DNA of 64,000 nucleotides. Origin: Kofleriaceae bacterium. Lineage in GTDB: Bacteria; Myxococcota_A; Polyangia; Haliangiales; Haliangiaceae. This document shows, piece after piece, positions 37,092-52,395 of this stretch (its first letter is position 1; each line of letters starts with the position of its first letter). A model generated the notes under the pieces. That model was not told the origin of the DNA and did not search any database. It worked only from the letters and a program-made list of their open reading frames with translations. A program made the position numbers and the translations under genes. The DNA is taken from positions 151,837 to 215,836 of the forward strand of contig JAWKQX010000006.1 of the NCBI GenBank assembly GCA_041389925.1, given 5' to 3'.

Positions 37092-40000
37092 ATGACGCGC
37101 GACGGCGAGCCCATGGGCGCACAGTCCGAGGAGGCCCGCGCGGAGACGGGGACGGAGGCGGCGGCGGAGACGGTGACGGTGACGGTAGCGGAGACGGAGA
37201 CGGTCGCGGAGACGGAGACGGTCGCGGAGACGGAGACGGTGACCGTGACGGTAGCGGGGGCGGAGACGGAGGCGGGGACGGAGACGGTAGCGGAGACGGA
37301 GACGGTAGCGGAGACGGAGACGGTAGCGGAGACGGAGACGGAGGCGGGGACGGAGACGGTAGCGGAGACGGAGACGGTGACCGTGACGGTAGCGGGGACG
37401 GAAGCGGTAGCGGGGACGGATGCGGTCGCGGATGCGGGAGCGGAGACGGTCGCGGTCGCGGAGGCGGGGACGGAGGCGGTCGCGGAGACGGTCGCGGTCG
37501 CGGAGGCGGGGACGGTCGCGGAGACGGTCGCGGTCGCGGAGACGGTCACGGTCGCGGACACGGGGACGGTCGCGGAGGCGGTCGCGGTCGCGGAGACGGT
37601 CACGGTCGCGGACACGGAGACGGTCGCGGCCACGGTGGACCCACGGGTGCCCTCGGCGCACCGGGCGGTCACCGTCGCCGCGCGAGGTCTGGGCGATCGC
37701 GTCGGCTCCACGGCGCGCGGGCCGATCGCGCACCTCGACACCGTCAACGACAGCGCGCCACGCGCGAACGCCGCGGAGGCTCGCCCCGACTCCGCGCCGC
37801 CGGAGTCGCGCTACGCCGGACGTCGCGAGCTCGGCCGCGGCGGCATGGGGCGCGTGCTGGAGGCCGTGGATCGCCACCTCGGGCGTGTCGTCGCCGTCAA
37901 GGAGTCGTTCGCCACCGACGAAGATGGACGACAGCGCTTCGCCCGAGAGGTCGCGATCACGTCGCGGCTGGAGCACCCGGCCATCGTGCCGCTCTACGAC
38001 GCCGGCACCACCGCCCAGGGCCGGCCGTACTACGTCATGCGCAAGCTCACCGGGCGCGGCCTCGATCAAGTGATGACCGCGGCGACCACCCTCGACGAGC
38101 GCATCGCGCTCTTGCCCGCGCTCCTGACCGTCTGCGACGCGGTCGCCCACGCCCACGCGCGCCGCGTCGTGCACCGCGACATCAAGCCGGGCAACATCTT
38201 GATCGGCGATCACGGCGAGACCATGGTGATCGACTGGGGCCTCGCGAAGGTCATCGGCGAACCCGCCGACGGGCCGGCCGACGCCGCTTCCAAGCCCCAC
38301 GTCCTGCCGCCCGACGCGCCCACCGCGCCGCCGCGCGGCGAGCACCCCCCGCTGCCGGTCGACGAGCTCAAGACCGTCGTCGGCTCGGTGTTCGGCACCC
38401 CGGGCTTCATGTCCCCCGAGCAAGCGCGCGGGGAGCAGCTCGACCTGCGCGGCGACGTCTACGCCCTCGGCGCGACGCTGTATCACCTGCTGGCGGGGCG
38501 GCCGCCGCACGTGGGCAGCTCCGCGACCGAGGTGATCGATCGCGTCCGCGTCGAGCCGCCGCCGCCCTTGCCGGAGGTCTGCCCGGGCGCGCCGGCGGAG
38601 CTCGTCGCCATCGTCGACAAGGCCATGGCGTTCGAGATCTCGGACCGCTACGCCGACGCCTCCGCGCTCGCGGGGGATCTGCGCCGGTTCCTCGCCGGGC
38701 AGCTCGTCGCCGCGCACCGCTACACGCTGTGGCAGCGGCTCCGCCGCGCCGCGCGTCGGCACCGCGCCGCGTTCCTCGTCGCGGGCGGCTCGCTGCTGGT
38801 GGTCGCGACGCTGGCGACCCTCAGCGTCGTCCGCATCATCAGCGAGCGCGATCACGCCGACGCGGCGCGCCGGATCGCGCAGCTCGAGCAGCGGCGCGCG
38901 GAGGAGGCCCGTGACGAGGCGGCCCTCCGCGCGGAGGAGCTGATCGTCGCGCAGGCGCACGGCCTCATCGAGCCGAACCCGACCGCGGCGCTCGCGCTGC
39001 TCAAGCGCCTCGCGCCGGGCTCGTCGGCGTGGCCCAAGGCGCGGATGATCGCGATGGCGGCGCAGGCGGAGGGCATCACCCGCGCCGTGCCGGCGAGCCG
39101 CACGCGCGTGCCCTCGATCTTCGCCATGAACCCGCGCAGCGATACCCTGCTCATCGGCGAGGATCAAGGGCGCATCCGGCTGCTCGACCTGGAGTCGCTC
39201 CGCATCCGCGAGCTGCTCGATGTCGGCGGGCGCGCGTTCGGCTGCTGGGTCAACGGCGGCGCCGCCGTGCTGCTCGCGAACGAGGCGGTCGGCATGGTGC
39301 TCCACGACGTCGCGTCCAAGCAGACGCGCACGGTGCCCATCTCGGCGCCGGTGAGTGCGCTGGAGTGCCAGGGCGGCAAGGGCGCGGCCTACCTCGACAA
39401 GGCCGGCGGCCTCTGGGTGGTGGACTCGGTGCTCGCGCAGGTGCGTCGGGTCGAGGCCGGCCTCGCGGTCGAGCACCTCGCGGTGACCCCGGACGGCGAG
39501 TGGCTGATCGTCGGCGGGCGAGGCGAGGCCGCGATCCTCGATCGCGACGGGGGCGTGCACCGACGCTTCTCCGGGGAGACCCTCCGGGTCCTCACGTCCG
39601 CGGGCGGGCGCGTCGGCATCTTCTTCCGCGATCGCGCGCTGGAGCTCGATCCGAAGAGCGACGCCGCGCCCACGGAGATCCCCTTGCCGAAGTTCCCGCT
39701 GGCGATCTTCTTCGTCGGCGAGAAGCTGCGCGTGCTCAACGGGCAGAACCGCCTGTGGTTCTCCGACGGCACGCTGGATGTGGAGCTGCCCACCACCCCG
39801 CAGGGGAGCGCGCCGCTCGGCGATCGCACCGCCGCGTTCGGCCTCCACGACGGCTCCGTGTGGCTCACCGGCTGGTGGGGCGCGCGCATGCTGCGCACAC
39901 CGGCGACCAGCGCGCTGGTCCGGCTCGCGGGCCGCGCGGGCTCGCCGTGGCTCGCCGCATGGACGACCGAGGGCGTGCTGGTCTGGAACCTCAGCGGCGC

Positions 40001-46434: not shown

Positions 46435-48012
<1,578 letters not shown>

Positions 48013-48104
48013 GGCCGCGAGTGTACCCGCAACGGGCGCGGGTTCGTCCCAGGTGTCAGCGAGGGGCCTCCGTCCAACGTGTCAGCGATGTCTTGATCCG
48101 TTCC

Positions 48105-48340
48105 CCGCCGCCGCCACCGTCCCCGTCGCGGCCACGGCCACCGCCACCGTCACGGTCACCGTCCCCGTCACGGTCGCCGTCCCCGTCACGGCCACCGCCA
48201 CCGTCACGGCCACCGTCACGGTCACGGCCACCGCCACCGCCACCGTCACGGTCACCGTCCCCGTCACGGCCACCGCCCCCGTCACGGCCACCGCCACCGT
48301 CACGGCACGCCTCCGTCACCGTCACCGTCGCCGCCTCCGT
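48105..48340. repeat. GTSACS hexanucleotide repeat tract abutting the IS left end
   Basis: Read directly (ccgtcacggtcaccgtccccgtcacggccacc...). Continues on the other side of the IS (49869-49920). Confidence 0.8.
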
Positions 48341-49868
48341 CTATCGATCCCGCACAAGTTTCCGGATCAATTCAGTCCCTTAGCCTTCTCCGTCGAAAAA
48401 ACGTCAGATGGTCGTGATCCCCTCGGTCGATGAAAGAGCGGCTGGACGAGGATGCCATCGGTCGAATGCAGGACGACTTGAGCCGGTCCGACCTTGGGGA
48501 TCCCCGGCGGGTCTCTCGTGCACAACAGATCGTCGCTCGCCTAGCGGCGTCCCCGGGGTCTTCGCTTCCCGAAGCCCTGGTCACCGATGCGGAACTGGAG
48601 GGGGCCTATCGACTCTTCAACAACGACCGCGTGACCTTTGAGCAGCTCTTCGATGCTCATGCGGGGGGCACCGTCGAACGAGCGCGAGGTCGCAAGCTGG
48701 TCCTCGCGATCCACGACACCACGGCGTGCTCGTTCCGACATGCGGATCCTCGAGAGATCGGGTACCTCCACACGGGGAAGCCAGGGTTTCTGTTGCACAT
48801 GACGATGCTCGTCGATACGGAGCAGTGGCGGCGGCCTTTGGGGCTCACCCATGCAGAGGTCCTCACGCGCGACAAACCGAGCAGTCGCAAATCGCGCATG
48901 TCGGGGGGAGAGACGGCGAAGCTCGCCGACCGGGAATATCTTCGCTGGCAACGTGGCATTTCGGTCTCCGAGGCCCGGTTGCAGCAAGCGGGCGCGTCGA
49001 TCATCCACGTGGCAGACCGCGAGAGCGATTCGTACGAGTTGATGGCGACGTGCGTGTCCCTCGGGCAGCGGTTCATCCTTCGAGCCAAGACGCATCGCAC
49101 CGTGGACCTGGACGGCCAGCGTGTTGGAATTCGGGATTTCGTCGTCGAGCAAGGGCGTGTCCGATTGGAGCGCGAGGTCCCGTTGTCACGGCGCCTCGGT
49201 ACCTCCATGCCCAATCGACGGCGCGACCATCCGCCACGCGAGAGCCGCGTCGCTAAGCTTTGCTTCTCGACGACGCAGGTGACGTTGCGTCGCCCCAACA
49301 TCGTTCCCGCGCGCAACGCGCCCCCCACGCTTGAGGTCAACGCGCTGCACGTGTTTGAGCCCGAGCCGCCGCCTGGCCAAGAGGCCGTCGACTGGTTGCT
49401 GTACACGACGGAGCCCCTCGGTACACGGCAGGAGATCGAAGACGTCGTCGACTACTACCGATGCCGTTGGCAGATCGAAGAACTCAACAAGGCGCTCAAG
49501 ACGGGCTGCGTGGTGCAGGAACGCCAGCTCGAGTCATTCGACGCGCTCACCACGATGCTGGCGCTCTCGCTCCCCATTGCCGTCGAGTTGCTTGCGCTTC
49601 GTACCCTCGCTCGCTCCGACGAGACGGCCCCCGCCACGGAGGTGCTCTCAGAGGACGAGCTTGCCGCTCTTCGCCACATGAGCCATCGGCCCCTCCCGGA
49701 CCGCCCCACCGTGCAGGACGCTCTCTGGTGCATCGCCGGGATCGGTGGACACATCAAGAATAATGGCTCGCCGGGTTGGCAGGTCCTCCAACGCGGCATG
49801 GAAAAGTTCATGTCTTTCGCGGCCGGATGGTGCGCGGCAAAGGCCGCCGACTTGTGATCAATCGATAG
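48341..49868 (+). mobile_element. IS4-family insertion sequence (about 1.53 kb) with imperfect terminal inverted repeats and a 10-bp target-site duplication
   Basis: Left end ctatcgatcccgcacaag. Right end cttgtgatcaatcgatag (the inverted counterpart). Flanked by the direct repeat ccgcctccgt at 48331-48340 and 49869-49878. A single transposase ORF lies inside. Confidence 0.8.
48430..49857 (+). CDS. IS4-family DDE transposase (475 aa)
   Basis: YYRCRWQIEELNKALK = Y-2-R-3-E-6-K signature of IS4-family transposases. DDE-type catalytic-core composition. ATG 48430. Confidence 0.85.
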   Translation: MKERLDEDAIGRMQDDLSRSDLGDPRRVSRAQQIVARLAASPGSSLPEALVTDAELEGAYRLFNNDRVTFEQLFDAHAGGTVERARGRKLVLAIHDTTACSFRHADPREIGYLHTGKPGFLLHMTMLVDTEQWRRPLGLTHAEVLTRDKPSSRKSRMSGGETAKLADREYLRWQRGISVSEARLQQAGASIIHVADRESDSYELMATCVSLGQRFILRAKTHRTVDLDGQRVGIRDFVVEQGRVRLEREVPLSRRLGTSMPNRRRDHPPRESRVAKLCFSTTQVTLRRPNIVPARNAPPTLEVNALHVFEPEPPPGQEAVDWLLYTTEPLGTRQEIEDVVDYYRCRWQIEELNKALKTGCVVQERQLESFDALTTMLALSLPIAVELLALRTLARSDETAPATEVLSEDELAALRHMSHRPLPDRPTVQDALWCIAGIGGHIKNNGSPGWQVLQRGMEKFMSFAAGWCAAKAADL

Positions 49869-49920
49869 CCGCCTCCGTCACCGTCTCCGCCCGTCTCCGC
49901 CACCGTCTCCGTCTCCGTCA
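49869..49920. repeat. short GTSACS hexanucleotide tract between the IS right end and the four-helix-bundle gene A
   Basis: ccgcctccgtcaccgtctccgcccgtctccgccaccgtctccgtctccgtcac read directly. Confidence 0.7.
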
Positions 49921-49948
49921 CAAAATGGCGCCCTTGCCGCCTCGAACG

Positions 49949-50272
49949 TCACCGAGGGGCTGCGAGCCGGTAGAGCATGCCGCCGAGCCGGTCCGCGATG
50001 GCATGGGGCGACTCGGTGCCGTCGAGCCAGCCCTTGGCCGTCGCGAGCGCCAGCGCGCTGCGCACCTCGCGGAGGCTGCCGTACGCGATGCGGAACAGCT
50101 GCACGCGGTCACCGCCGAAGCGCCCGCCGGCCTCAGCGAGGTTCAGCGCGACGCTATCCGCGGCGCGATCGAGCTGACGAGCAAGGTCTCGGTCGCGCTG
50201 GCGAACCGCCGCGAGCGGGCCGCGAAGACTACGAACCAGGTCGAGCGAGAGGTCATAGGCGAGAAAGGGCAT
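49949..50272 (-). CDS. four-helix-bundle protein (TIGR02436 / 23S rRNA intervening-sequence protein / Avd-like), copy A, 107 aa
   Basis: MPFLAYDLSLDLVRSLRG...LARQLDRAADSVALNLAEAGGRF...QLFRIAYGSLREVRSALALA. Conserved xxAxSIxxNIAEG and LxEL motifs of the family. GGAGA Shine-Dalgarno 9 nt upstream. Confidence 0.8.
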   Translation of the reverse strand: MPFLAYDLSLDLVRSLRGPLAAVRQRDRDLARQLDRAADSVALNLAEAGGRFGGDRVQLFRIAYGSLREVRSALALATAKGWLDGTESPHAIADRLGGMLYRLAAPR

Positions 50273-50421
50273 CGGTCATCTCCAGGGGTGGTTTCTCCCC
50301 CCAAGCGGAACGAACCGTGACGCGCGCTGAAAAAACCAACGCTCGCGCTCTCGTCCACACTCTCTCGCGCGCGGCGCGGTTCTTTCCGCGTCCGGGAGAA
50401 CCACCCCTGGAGATGGCCGAT
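50270..50421. promoter_or_regulatory. about 150-bp imperfect palindrome duplicating the RBS/start context of copy A in inverted orientation (CATCGGTCATCTCCAGGGGTGGTTTCTCCCC ... GGGAGAACCACCCCTGGAGATGGCCGATG)
   Basis: Arms read directly. Left arm includes ATG+SD of 49949..50272(-). Right arm gives an identical SD+ATG (50419) for the + strand TV-repeat ORF. Inner arms also partly palindromic. Confidence 0.6.
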
Positions 50422-50949
50422 GCCCGGCTCGACCTGAGCTCGCTCCTGACCGCCGTGGCCGTGACCGTGACCGTGGCCGTGACCGTGACCGTGGCCGTCG
50501 CCGAGACCGCGACCGTGGCCGTCGCCGAGACCGTGGCCGTCGCCGAGACCGCGACCGTGGCCGTCGCCGGGACCGCGACCGAGACCGTCGCCGGGACCGC
50601 GACCGAGACCGTCGCCGAGACCGCGACCGTGGCCGTCGCCGAGACCGCGACCGTGGCCGTCTCCGAGACCGCTGCCGCCACCGTCTCCGTCTCCGTCACC
50701 GTCACCGTCACCGTCTCCGTCTCCGTCACCGTCACCGTCACCGTCTCCGCCACCGCCACCGCCACCGTCTCCGTCTCCGTCTCCGCCACCGTCCCCGTCT
50801 CCGCCACCGCCACCGCCACCGCCACCGCCACCGTCTCCGTCTCCGTCTCCGTCTCCGCCACCGCCGCCGCCGCCGTCACCGCCTCCGGCTCCGTCACCGA
50901 GGCCGTTTCCGCTGCCGAGGCCGTTTCCGCTGCCGAGGCCCGCGGCTGA
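50419..50949 (+). CDS. putative repeat protein ORF-X (MADARLDLSSLL + about 150 aa of TV/AV/ET dipeptide repeats); may be a non-functional by-product of the palindrome
   Basis: Same SD (ctGGAGAtggccgATG) as the four-helix-bundle gene. The first 15 aa resemble the four-helix-bundle N-terminus. The body is encoded entirely by the hexanucleotide repeat, in a high-GC3 frame. Confidence 0.3.
   Translation, partial: DARLDLSSLLTAVAVTVTVAVTVTVAVAETATVAVAETVAVAETATVAVAGTATETVAGTATETVAETATVAVAETATVAVSETAAATVSVSVTVTVTVSVSVTVTVTVSATATATVSVSVSATVPVSATATATATATVSVSVSVSATAAAAVTASGSVTEAVSAAEAVSAAEARG
50452..50945. repeat. largest GTSACS hexanucleotide tract (about 75 units) followed by two 18-bp repeats (gccgaggccgtttccgct)
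   Basis: Read directly. Every frame on both strands is open through the tract. Confidence 0.85.
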
Positions 50950-51001
50950 CACCGGGCTGCTTCGGTCCTCGTCGGCAGGGGCTCCTTGGGGCGGCGAAGT
51001 C

Positions 51002-51194
51002 AGGCCGTCGTCCGTCGTCGTCTCGCCCCGCGCCCCGACGCGCACCGGCCCGCGCCGAGCGCCGGGGGCGCGGTGCAGGAGCGGGTGGCCGCCGCATGAA
51101 CAGGGTTGGAGGAGGCGCGCGCGTCGAGGGGGCGCTCGTCACGGGCCGTGCGCGTTGGGGGCGCTGGGGGCGAGAGACGACGACGGACGACGGC
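51002..51194. mobile_element. MITE-like element: 28-bp inverted repeats (aggccgtcgtccgtcgtcgtctcgcccc / ggggcgagagacgacgacggacgacggcct) flanking about 135 bp, just upstream of four-helix-bundle gene B
   Basis: Arms read directly at 51002-51029 and 51166-51194. No convincing ORF between them. Confidence 0.4.
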
Positions 51195-51228
51195 CTGCTC
51201 TTAGGCCCCTCACCAAAGGAGTTCCCTA

Positions 51229-51552
51229 ATGCCTTTCGATGTTCTCGAAACCTCCCTCAGCGTCATGGAGCGGCTCACGCCAGTCGAAGCGAAGCTCCGC
51301 CAGCGCCGAAAGTCCCTTGCCGATCAGGTCGGCCGAGCCGCGGAGAGCGTGTCGCTCAACATCAGCGAAGCGCGCGAGCGCGCCGGCCTCGATCGCGCGG
51401 ATCTCTTCCGACGCGCGGCCGGCTCCGCGAGCGAGCTCACGACGGCGCTGCGAATCGCGCAGCTCCGTGGCTACATCACGGCAGCAGACTTCGCGGCAGT
51501 CGACGCCATGCTGGATCGTGTCCGCGCGATGCTCTGGCGGCTCACTCACTGA
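51229..51552 (+). CDS. four-helix-bundle protein (TIGR02436 / 23S-IVS / Avd-like), copy B, 107 aa
   Basis: MPFDVLETSLSVMERL...LADQVGRAAESVSLNISEARERA...DLFRRAAGSASELTTALRIAQ. AAGGAG Shine-Dalgarno 9 nt upstream. Paralog of copy A in opposite orientation. Confidence 0.8.
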   Translation: MPFDVLETSLSVMERLTPVEAKLRQRRKSLADQVGRAAESVSLNISEARERAGLDRADLFRRAAGSASELTTALRIAQLRGYITAADFAAVDAMLDRVRAMLWRLTH

Positions 51553-51587
51553 CGGCACGCCAAGGGCGCCTCGGCTGCCGCGGCGGT

Positions 51588-51607
51588 GACTTGCGACCAA
51601 TCGATAG
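51588..51607 (+). mobile_element. solo IS4-family right-end remnant (gacttgcgaccaatcgatag) followed by a hexanucleotide tract
   Basis: Matches the IS right end gacttgtgatcaatcgatag at 18 of 20 positions, in the same orientation relative to the adjoining repeat tract. Confidence 0.5.
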
Positions 51608-51672
51608 CCGTCACGGCCACCGTCACGGTCACGGTCACGGCCACCGTCCCCGTCCCCGTCACGTCCACCGTC
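51608..51672. repeat. GTSACS hexanucleotide tract read in-frame into the SDR gene's upstream ORF
   Basis: ccgtcacggccaccgtcacggtcacggtcacggccaccgtccccgtccccgtcacgtccaccgtc. Confidence 0.75.
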
Positions 51673-51690
51673 TCGAGTATGCTCCGCTCC

Positions 51691-52395
51691 ATGAGAACCC
51701 TCTCCAAGCGACATGTCGTGGTCACCGGCGCCACCGGCGCGCTGGGCAGCGCCGTGGTGGCCAGGCTGCTCGACCTCGGCGCGGAGTGCCACTTGCCGAT
51801 GCGCGAGCCGGCGGTGCCGGAGCACCTGCCCTGGCGCGGTCACGCCCAGGTCCACGCCACGCCGAGCGTCTCGCTCGAGGACGAGGCCGCGGTGACCGCG
51901 TACTACGCCGGCCTGCCCGAGCTGTGGGGCTCGGCGCAGCTCGTCGGCGGCTTCGCGATGAAGCCGCTGCTCGACACCTCGCTCGCGGAGCTGCACGCGC
52001 AGTGGAGCCTCAACGTCGCCACCTGCTTCCTCTGCTGCCGCGAGGCGGTGCGCGCCATGCGCCGCAGCGGCGGGGCCCAGGGCGGCCGCCTGATCAACGT
52101 CACGGCCCGCGCCGCGACGAGCGCCGCGCCCGGCATGCTCGCGTACACCGCGGCCAAGGCGGCGGTGGCGTCGCTCACCCAGACCCTGGCGGCGGAGCTC
52201 GCGCAGGAGCAGATCCTCATCAACGCGATCTCCCCGTCGCTGATCGACAGCGCCGCCAACCGCGCGGCCATGCCCGACGCCGACTTCGACAAGTGGCCCA
52301 AGCCCACCGAGCTCGCCGACGCCATCGCCTTCCTGCTCTCGCCCGACAACGCGCTGACCTCCGGCGCGATCGTTCCGGTGTACGGCCGCGCCTAG
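51691..52395 (+). CDS. SDR-family NAD(P)-dependent oxidoreductase; start uncertain (ATG 51679/51691; the ORF is open back to GTG 51586 through the repeat)
   Basis: VVVTGATGALGSAVVARL (TGxxxGxG). YTAAKAAV (YxxxK). ...LINAISPSLIDS. Confidence 0.8.
   Translation: MRTLSKRHVVVTGATGALGSAVVARLLDLGAECHLPMREPAVPEHLPWRGHAQVHATPSVSLEDEAAVTAYYAGLPELWGSAQLVGGFAMKPLLDTSLAELHAQWSLNVATCFLCCREAVRAMRRSGGAQGGRLINVTARAATSAAPGMLAYTAAKAAVASLTQTLAAELAQEQILINAISPSLIDSAANRAAMPDADFDKWPKPTELADAIAFLLSPDNALTSGAIVPVYGRA

Follow-up and report, generated by a model that had tools for sequence, protein, structure and literature searches.

IS50 duplicates 9 bp of target DNA on insertion, and the YREK signature, Y-(2)-R-(3)-E-(6)-K, follows the third catalytic residue of the transposase. 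To our knowledge, a preference for hexamer tracts is not a property of Tn5. Targeting of short repeated sequences is a feature of other insertion sequences (ISs): IS1397 and ISKpn1 target REP/BIME sequences, and IS1111-type elements target attC or REP sequences (IS3 and IS110 families). The surrogate ends of ISEcp1 are weak chance matches, not true relics. We are not aware of a bacterial IS that targets tandem repeats in a fixed register, and a literature search found no description of one; it also returned nothing relevant on the four-helix-bundle (4HB) family, or on hexanucleotide repeats and ISs in myxobacteria.

Here, we analyzed a 64-kb stretch of DNA from a Kofleriaceae bacterium (hereafter, the window) that carries an intact IS50/Tn5-like element, 4HB genes and tracts of tandem hexamers. 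The best protein matches bear source names that indicate a Kofleriaceae MAG (Myxococcota, Haliangiales). A solo copy of the right end of the IS lies ~1.7 kb downstream of the intact element, and its origin is the subject of this report.

An intact IS50-like element in a hexamer tract

The intact IS (48341–49868, + strand, 1528 bp) encodes a 475-aa transposase (48430–49857, + strand) that matches NF033590 (281.7 bits against a cut-off of 160, 9e-84), PF14706 (56 bits) and PF01609 (36.8 bits), and the stop codon of which lies inside the right terminal repeat. Residues 343–357 of the transposase form the YREK signature (YRCRWQIEELNKALK). The left terminal repeat (IRL, 48341–48359, CTATCGATCCCGCACAAGT) and the right one (IRR, 49850–49868, reverse complement CTATCGATTGATCACAAGT) are each 19 bp long and are identical at 15 of 19 positions. 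The element is bracketed by a perfect 10-bp target-site duplication (TSD), CCGCCTCCGT, at 48331–48340 and 49869–49878 (both + strand), and deletion of the IS with one TSD copy restores the hexamer phase. The transposase models, the YREK signature, the short imperfect terminal repeats and a TSD of the 9–13-bp class thus place the element in the IS4 family as an IS50/Tn5-like member, and its ends and transposase, together with the perfect TSD and the restored phase, indicate that it is intact and inserted in a hexamer tract (tract 1). The identical transposase gene was found on 14 short metagenome contigs.

Tract 1 is split by the IS into a left part (48100–48340) and a right part (49869–49919; both + strand). 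A gap of 29 nt separates the right part from the stop codon of 4HB gene A (49949–50272, − strand; 107 aa; PF05635, 3.5e-11; TIGR02436), the 3′ end of which faces tract 1 and the IS. A second 4HB gene, gene B (51229–51552, + strand; 107 aa; PF05635, 1.7e-14; TIGR02436, 8e-14), precedes the tract that adjoins the solo end, and further tracts occupy 50440–50940 (tract 2) and 37140–37638. Tract units fit C[CG]G[TCA][CA]N.

Several features of the tracts were observed in passing. Each hexamer tract is either intergenic or situated at the very 5′ end of an ORF. The longest ORF of a Ser/Thr kinase gene opens with the 500-bp tract at 37092–37640, which would translate as a repetitive peptide; translation of the tract is putative, and the real start may lie downstream. 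At the right edge of tract 2 (50897–50940), a perfect 18-bp tandem repeat, CCGAGGCCGTTTCCGCTG, is present in 2.4 copies; its sequence differs from that of the hexamer units. A stretch at the left boundary of tract 1 (48045–48095), GGTGTCAGCGAGG...CGTGTCAGCGATGTCTTG, is similar to the terminal repeats, TGTCAGCGATGTC, on either side of an IS481-family transposase gene in another contig (L019, 1888–3048). This boundary may represent a second type of solo IS end next to a tract.

A solo right end downstream of gene B

The 20-mer at 51588–51607 (+ strand), GACTTGCGACCAATCGATAG, and the right terminus of the intact IS (GACTTGTGATCAATCGATAG, 49849–49868) agree at 18 of 20 positions, precisely the figure given in an earlier, sequence-only reading of this DNA. 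The 20-mer consists of the 19-bp Tn5-like end plus one base, and both mismatches to the active end are T>C changes. No further site in the 64-kb window matched either IS end with up to three mismatches, and 0 of 100 shuffles yielded a match. From base composition, the chance expectation in the window at up to two mismatches is ~1e-5 for the right end and ~5e-5 for the left end. The 13-mer CAATCGATAGCCG, which the same reading had put forward for a search, occurs exactly twice in the window, in the intact right end and in the solo. When the complete IS was compared with the remainder of the window by sensitive blastn, the sole match was that of IS positions 1509–1529 at 51588–51608. Taken alone and under lenient scoring, this 21-bp hit has an E-value of ~0.8 for the whole IS against the window, as might be found for chance similarity in GC-rich, repeat-rich DNA. 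We nonetheless consider a chance origin close to negligible given the low expectation and the shuffles. The match is moreover anchored at the exact IS terminus, is AT-richer than the surrounding DNA, shares the junction register of intact copies and persists at the corresponding locus of another sample (L011).

The likeness to the IS ends at base 20 of the solo. In alignment, the 35 nt that separate it from the gene B stop codon (51553–51587, + strand) are unlike the IS interior, and they include a hairpin-like stretch rich in GC as well as a motif, CAAGGGCGCC, that recurs 3′ of gene A. We considered whether these 35 nt could be diverged IS interior and rejected this on account of the lack of similarity and the motif held in common with the gene A flank; the stretch is the native 3′ flank of gene B and is not IS-derived. 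On its outer side, the solo directly adjoins the hexamer tract at 51608–51672 (+ strand; CCGTCA/CGGCCA... units). Its placement 3′ of gene B and 5′ of a hexamer tract is therefore as originally described.

Neither a transposase gene nor a second end is attached to the solo in the window. Of the IS, the solo retains the 19-bp transposase-binding end, together with one base. Its left junction, GCGGCGGT/GAC, offers at most 3 nt of microhomology with the IS (GCCGCC/GAC). Consensus scans revealed no outward promoter or terminator at the solo, and an Rfam search over 47900–52000 returned nothing meaningful. A scan of 185,579 GTDB species genomes for GACTTGYGAYCAATCGATA gave five matches, all attributable to chance, in unrelated phyla and without IS or tract, and a scan of JGI metagenomes for the solo 20-mer gave none.

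The direction of descent can be read from the two halves of the end. The inner part of the right end, GACTTGTGATCAAT, is common to sibling ISs with transposases 70–76% identical to that of the window IS, and the outer part varies from sibling to sibling (GAAGAG in P0007, CGAGAG in P0099 and P0039, GGAGAG in P0019). The outer 10 bp of the solo, CAATCGATAG, are identical to the end of the window IS species only, their counterparts in the siblings being CAATGAAGAG, CAATCGAGAG or CAATGGAGAG. Descent therefore runs from the IS to the solo and not the reverse. The earlier identification of the 20-mer as a solo IS4-family right-end remnant is borne out by this species-specific outer segment, and its source can be specified as IS50/Tn5-like.

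Junction register and tract targeting

On the + strand, both right ends are followed by the C-rich strand of a tract (ATAG/CCGCCTCCGT at the intact IS and ATAG/CCGTCACGGC at the solo). The shared polarity that had been noted for the two sites thus holds here, but it is not a rule, as intact copies abut tracts in both orientations. The register is fixed. The solo junction, ATAG/CCGTCA, has the same hexamer register as the intact junctions in the window and in two metagenome contigs (L001 and L010), and solo junctions elsewhere (ATAG/CCGTCTCCGT in L011 and ATAA/CCGTCACGGT in L004) share it. The outward flanks of identical-IS copies start with CCGYCW... on one side and (A/G)CGGWG... on the other, a pattern expected from a 10-bp staggered cut at a fixed hexamer register. 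The junction register supports a real insertion event at the solo.

Tracts are also the predominant surroundings of this IS in other assemblies. By a strict lag-6 test, 9 of 13 distinct 36-bp flanks of identical-IS copies are tract, compared with 1.4% of window positions; by eye, the figure is ~11 of 13. The flanks in one contig (L002) consist of a different hexamer repeat, of the GTCAAC type. All four sibling ISs (P0007, P0099, P0019 and P0039) lie in tracts of the GTC-period-6 type and are often placed a short distance 3′ of a 4HB gene. P0007 always occupies the same site, CCACCTCCACGTCGCCGT^CGCCGTCAA, with the TSD ACGTCGCCGT and in either orientation (L019–L028), ~35 nt past the 3′ end of a 4HB gene or of a degenerate 4HB pseudogene. 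P0099 is found in a (CTCGAC)n tract, and P0019 and P0039 in GTCAAC/GTCGCC/GTCGAA tracts. The duplicated or flanking 10-mers fit MCGYCNNCGT. These data support a marked preference of an IS50-like clade in Kofleriaceae-type Myxococcota for hexanucleotide tracts flanking 4HB genes, and of the two explanations offered for the solo in the sequence-only reading, repeated targeting of the tracts, they uphold the first. In one of the contigs with P0007 (L019), the adjoining 4HB gene was seen to lack its N-terminal ~25 codons.

Short-read contigs assembled across a 1.5-kb repeat may be chimeric, so that the type of flank is reliable and individual TSDs outside the window are not; because of this possible chimerism, only the window copy gives a trustworthy TSD. 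Two pairs of contigs, L001/L005 and L003/L004, carry the same IS with reciprocally swapped flanks, which reflects either chimerism introduced when contigs were assembled over the repeat or genuine inversions that arose when oppositely oriented IS copies recombined. A TSD analysis from metagenome contigs was rejected on the grounds of these chimeric or recombinant pairs.

The relic in other samples and a second solo end

A 654-bp contig from another metagenome sample (L011) covers the same locus, with an identical gene B protein and with the relic at one mismatch. The relic therefore predates the divergence of the window and L011 strains. From 51613 onward, 22 of 63 positions differ between the two, compared with 11 of 530 upstream, one of them inside the relic; tract hypervariability thus sets in 5 nt beyond the relic's outer edge. 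The tracts are hypervariable between near-identical strains, with an ungapped difference of 35% (51608–51672 compared with 532–654 of L011) versus ~2% in the adjoining unique DNA. Because it marks the precise start of hypervariability, the relic is a handy anchor for the study of tract turnover. One of the changes in the window relic falls in the TGATCA core that is conserved in all sibling ends, and the relic itself appears, from these comparisons, to be without sign of special conservation.

A second, independent solo of ~22 bp is present in L004 (1686–1707), at a boundary between tract and unique sequence, inverted and 54 nt from the right end of an intact copy. It shares with the window solo a T>C change (GATC>GACC), whereas all intact copies and the sibling ISs keep GATC. 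At the orthologous locus in L003 (1754–1768), the solo has decayed to 14 of 20 matches, with the inner 13 nt kept and the outer 7 nt replaced by tract-like sequence, which is consistent with neutral drift.

The length of 20–22 bp, the boundary position and the GACC variant held in common by the two solos could point to an older IS sub-lineage with a GACC end, to a short non-autonomous derivative family or to systematic trimming of insertions to the protein-binding end; each is possible. A family of the second kind, MITE-like and ending in the GACC variant, would account for two loci (window/L011 and L004/L003) with end-only copies of ~20–22 bp that share a T>C change absent from intact copies and siblings, and by inspection L004 has a weak end-like stretch, GACGCTGACCAAGATCAGATGAG, ~75 bp inward of its solo. 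We regard such an origin as unlikely. What lies inward of the window solo is the native 3′ flank and the coding end of gene B, and searches of the window with three mismatches, with relaxed motifs and by best score against shuffles detected no partner end, the best match of 12/19 equaling that of shuffled sequence. The candidate partner in L004 would require several indels. Furthermore, the DNA on the inward side of one solo bears no relation to that of the other. A conserved sequence inward of the L004 solo (GGAACCCGGCTTTCC, GTTGAAGGTGTC...) is absent from the window.

Homologous 4HB loci

Gene B has more than 500 homologues, many of them 75–88% identical and in very different contexts, and homologues with 75–97% identity are widespread; the 97% homologue (P0122) is on a 3.4-Mb Kofleriaceae contig. 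The 20-mer was found downstream in none of ~26 independent gene-B-type loci (L018, L031–L053 and L054–L061), which indicates that it is lineage-specific and inserted rather than part of the 4HB module. At one of these loci (L043), a 290-bp hexamer tract starts ~30 nt past the stop codon of the gene B homologue, with no IS end between gene and tract.

This distribution bears on whether the 20-mer could belong natively to the tract or the 4HB module, as a boundary motif that the IS end mimics. A boundary motif would explain why the sequence stands exactly at the tract boundary in both independent cases and perhaps why L003 keeps the inner 13 nt and not the outer 7 nt. Yet it is absent from the window's other tract boundaries, from L043 and from ~25 other homologous 4HB loci, and its outermost 10 bp correspond to the species-specific, not the clade-conserved, part of the IS end. 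We therefore judge this origin highly improbable.

The second explanation in the sequence-only reading was IS-end-mediated mobilization of the 4HB gene with its tract. In the most explicit version, the solo would be a usable alternative right end, and IRL (48341) and the solo (51607) would together move a 3.27-kb composite of IS, tract, gene A, tract and gene B. The two ends are inverted relative to each other and correctly oriented, the full 19-bp end is kept with only two changes, and the 75–88% identity of gene-B-type 4HB genes across very different contexts suggests horizontal movement by some means. The outer flanks, however, do not fit: the 10 bp outside the putative composite differ on the two sides (CCGCCTCCGT versus CCGTCACGGC), and the IS alone has a perfect TSD. 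The relic is present at the gene B locus in L011 too and is mutating there and here (one change, then two), with one change in the conserved TGATCA core, and such ends border none of the ~26 homologous 4HB loci. No inverted partner end is found in the interval from the IS to the solo (49869–51587), where the best match (12/19) is again that of shuffled sequence; upstream of the solo, the one left end in the correct orientation is the IRL that belongs to the intact IS. Past mobilization of the unit thus finds no footing in partner ends, composite duplication or the homologous loci, and we consider the composite very unlikely. A future event with the solo as surrogate end would be possible on sequence alone.

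Upstream of gene B, the window contains a conserved non-coding leader of ~200 nt (50995–51228), and the same leader precedes gene-B-type 4HB genes in many unrelated contexts (L018, 1–110; L031–L053; L059/L060); a conserved leader is common to all of the ~26 loci examined. From 14 sequences, RNAalifold predicts a single long hairpin with 44 pairs, 10 of which have compensatory changes; columns 89/191, for example, pair as UA in 8 sequences, GC in 4, CG in 1 and AU in 1. In the window, the outer stem is a 28-nt inverted repeat (50998–51025 and 51170–51197). The leader has no match in Rfam and could be a structured element, of RNA or DNA, that is new to the literature. The hairpin recalls the stems of the rRNA intervening sequences after which the 4HB protein family is named.

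Origin of the solo end

We conclude it to be probable that the same IS species, or its direct ancestor, inserted earlier and independently into the tract downstream of gene B, and that the 20-mer is a decaying relic of that event. The IS50/Tn5-like clade inserts preferentially in GTC-period-6 tracts and duplicates a target of ~10 bp (MCGYCNNCGT). Tracts of this kind commonly lie just 3′ of 4HB genes, and IS ends thus come to stand repeatedly beside such genes. After insertion, a deletion would have removed the IS body, the left end and a short stretch of tract on the gene B side, most likely by illegitimate or microhomology (GAC) recombination in a tract that turns over fast. The transposase-binding terminus would have stayed, with its original transposition junction to the tract intact, and would then have drifted, presumably as a neutral sequence, with one T>C change in L011 and two in the window. 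The identity of the IS, the junction register, the preference for tracts, the presence of the relic in a second sample and its absence from homologous 4HB modules were all observed. The alleles compared were L011, with the same relic, and distant homologues (L043 and others) without it; they included neither a full IS nor a strict empty site at this position. Exact-protein look-ups gave no record for P0122 or gene A and, for the kinase neighbour, a single 2.6-kb contig that ends short of the tract. Read as a relic, the solo serves as a marker that the gene B tract was hit independently of the gene A tract.

A random deletion is not expected to stop exactly at the inner edge of a 19–20-bp end, which speaks against the relic reading, and the matching length, boundary position and GACC variant of the L004 solo hint at more than random decay. 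End-only stumps might accordingly be systematic products and not random debris: in this Kofleriaceae lineage, the clade would consist of microsatellite-seeking ISs that recognize a fixed register of GTC-period-6 tracts beside 4HB modules and leave 19–22-bp ends at tract boundaries. We consider this unlikely. If it were true, a bound transposase or the non-repetitive end might block tract turnover, or the GATC>GACC end might be uncleavable, and the stumps could act as surrogate ends or as boundary elements of hypervariable tracts.

Comparison with known systems

The source element resembles IS50/Tn5 in its transposase, which by family models combines an N-terminal Tnp_DNA_bind domain with DDE_Tnp_1 and the YREK motif, and in its 19-bp ends, which start with CT and finish with CACAAGT as does the Tn5 outside end (CTGACTCTTATACACAAGT); TGATCA in the right end is like the inside end. 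Compared with the Tn5 ends, the IS ends show 11–13 identities in 19 positions, and the transposase stop codon lies within the right end. The differences are the TSD, 10 bp here versus 9 bp in IS50, and the strong preference for GTC-period-6 tracts. Such an element could be used to study target capture by Tn5-type transposases.

As regards the solo itself, the nearest comparison is generic IS debris, the solo terminal repeats of the ISfinder type: an isolated repeat without transposase, at its original junction and with point mutations. The relic is ordinary solo IS-end debris, and its primary identification as a solo right end is right. It differs from generic debris in being unusually short and exact, confined to the transposase-binding end, and in having a second relic of nearly equal length with the same variant base. 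The arrangement also recalls ISEcp1/IS1380-type elements, in which IRL, tnp and IRR are followed downstream by an IRR-like sequence in the same orientation with cargo in between; here, however, there is no TSD around the larger unit and no second copy of the unit, and the transposase belongs to another family. Nearly precise excision of Tn10 is similar in that a host-mediated deletion leaves a short terminal remnant, but it needs the long inverted IS10 arms and defined short repeats, whereas at most a 3-nt GAC microhomology is available here.

With respect to target behavior, REP-targeting ISs are the closest functional analogues. They share a fixed insertion position in a short repeated intergenic sequence that provides many harmless landing sites. 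They differ in that the target here is a tandem hexamer tract, or a tract-like repeat by 4HB genes, rather than a palindromic REP sequence, and in that the transposase family is IS4/IS50-like.
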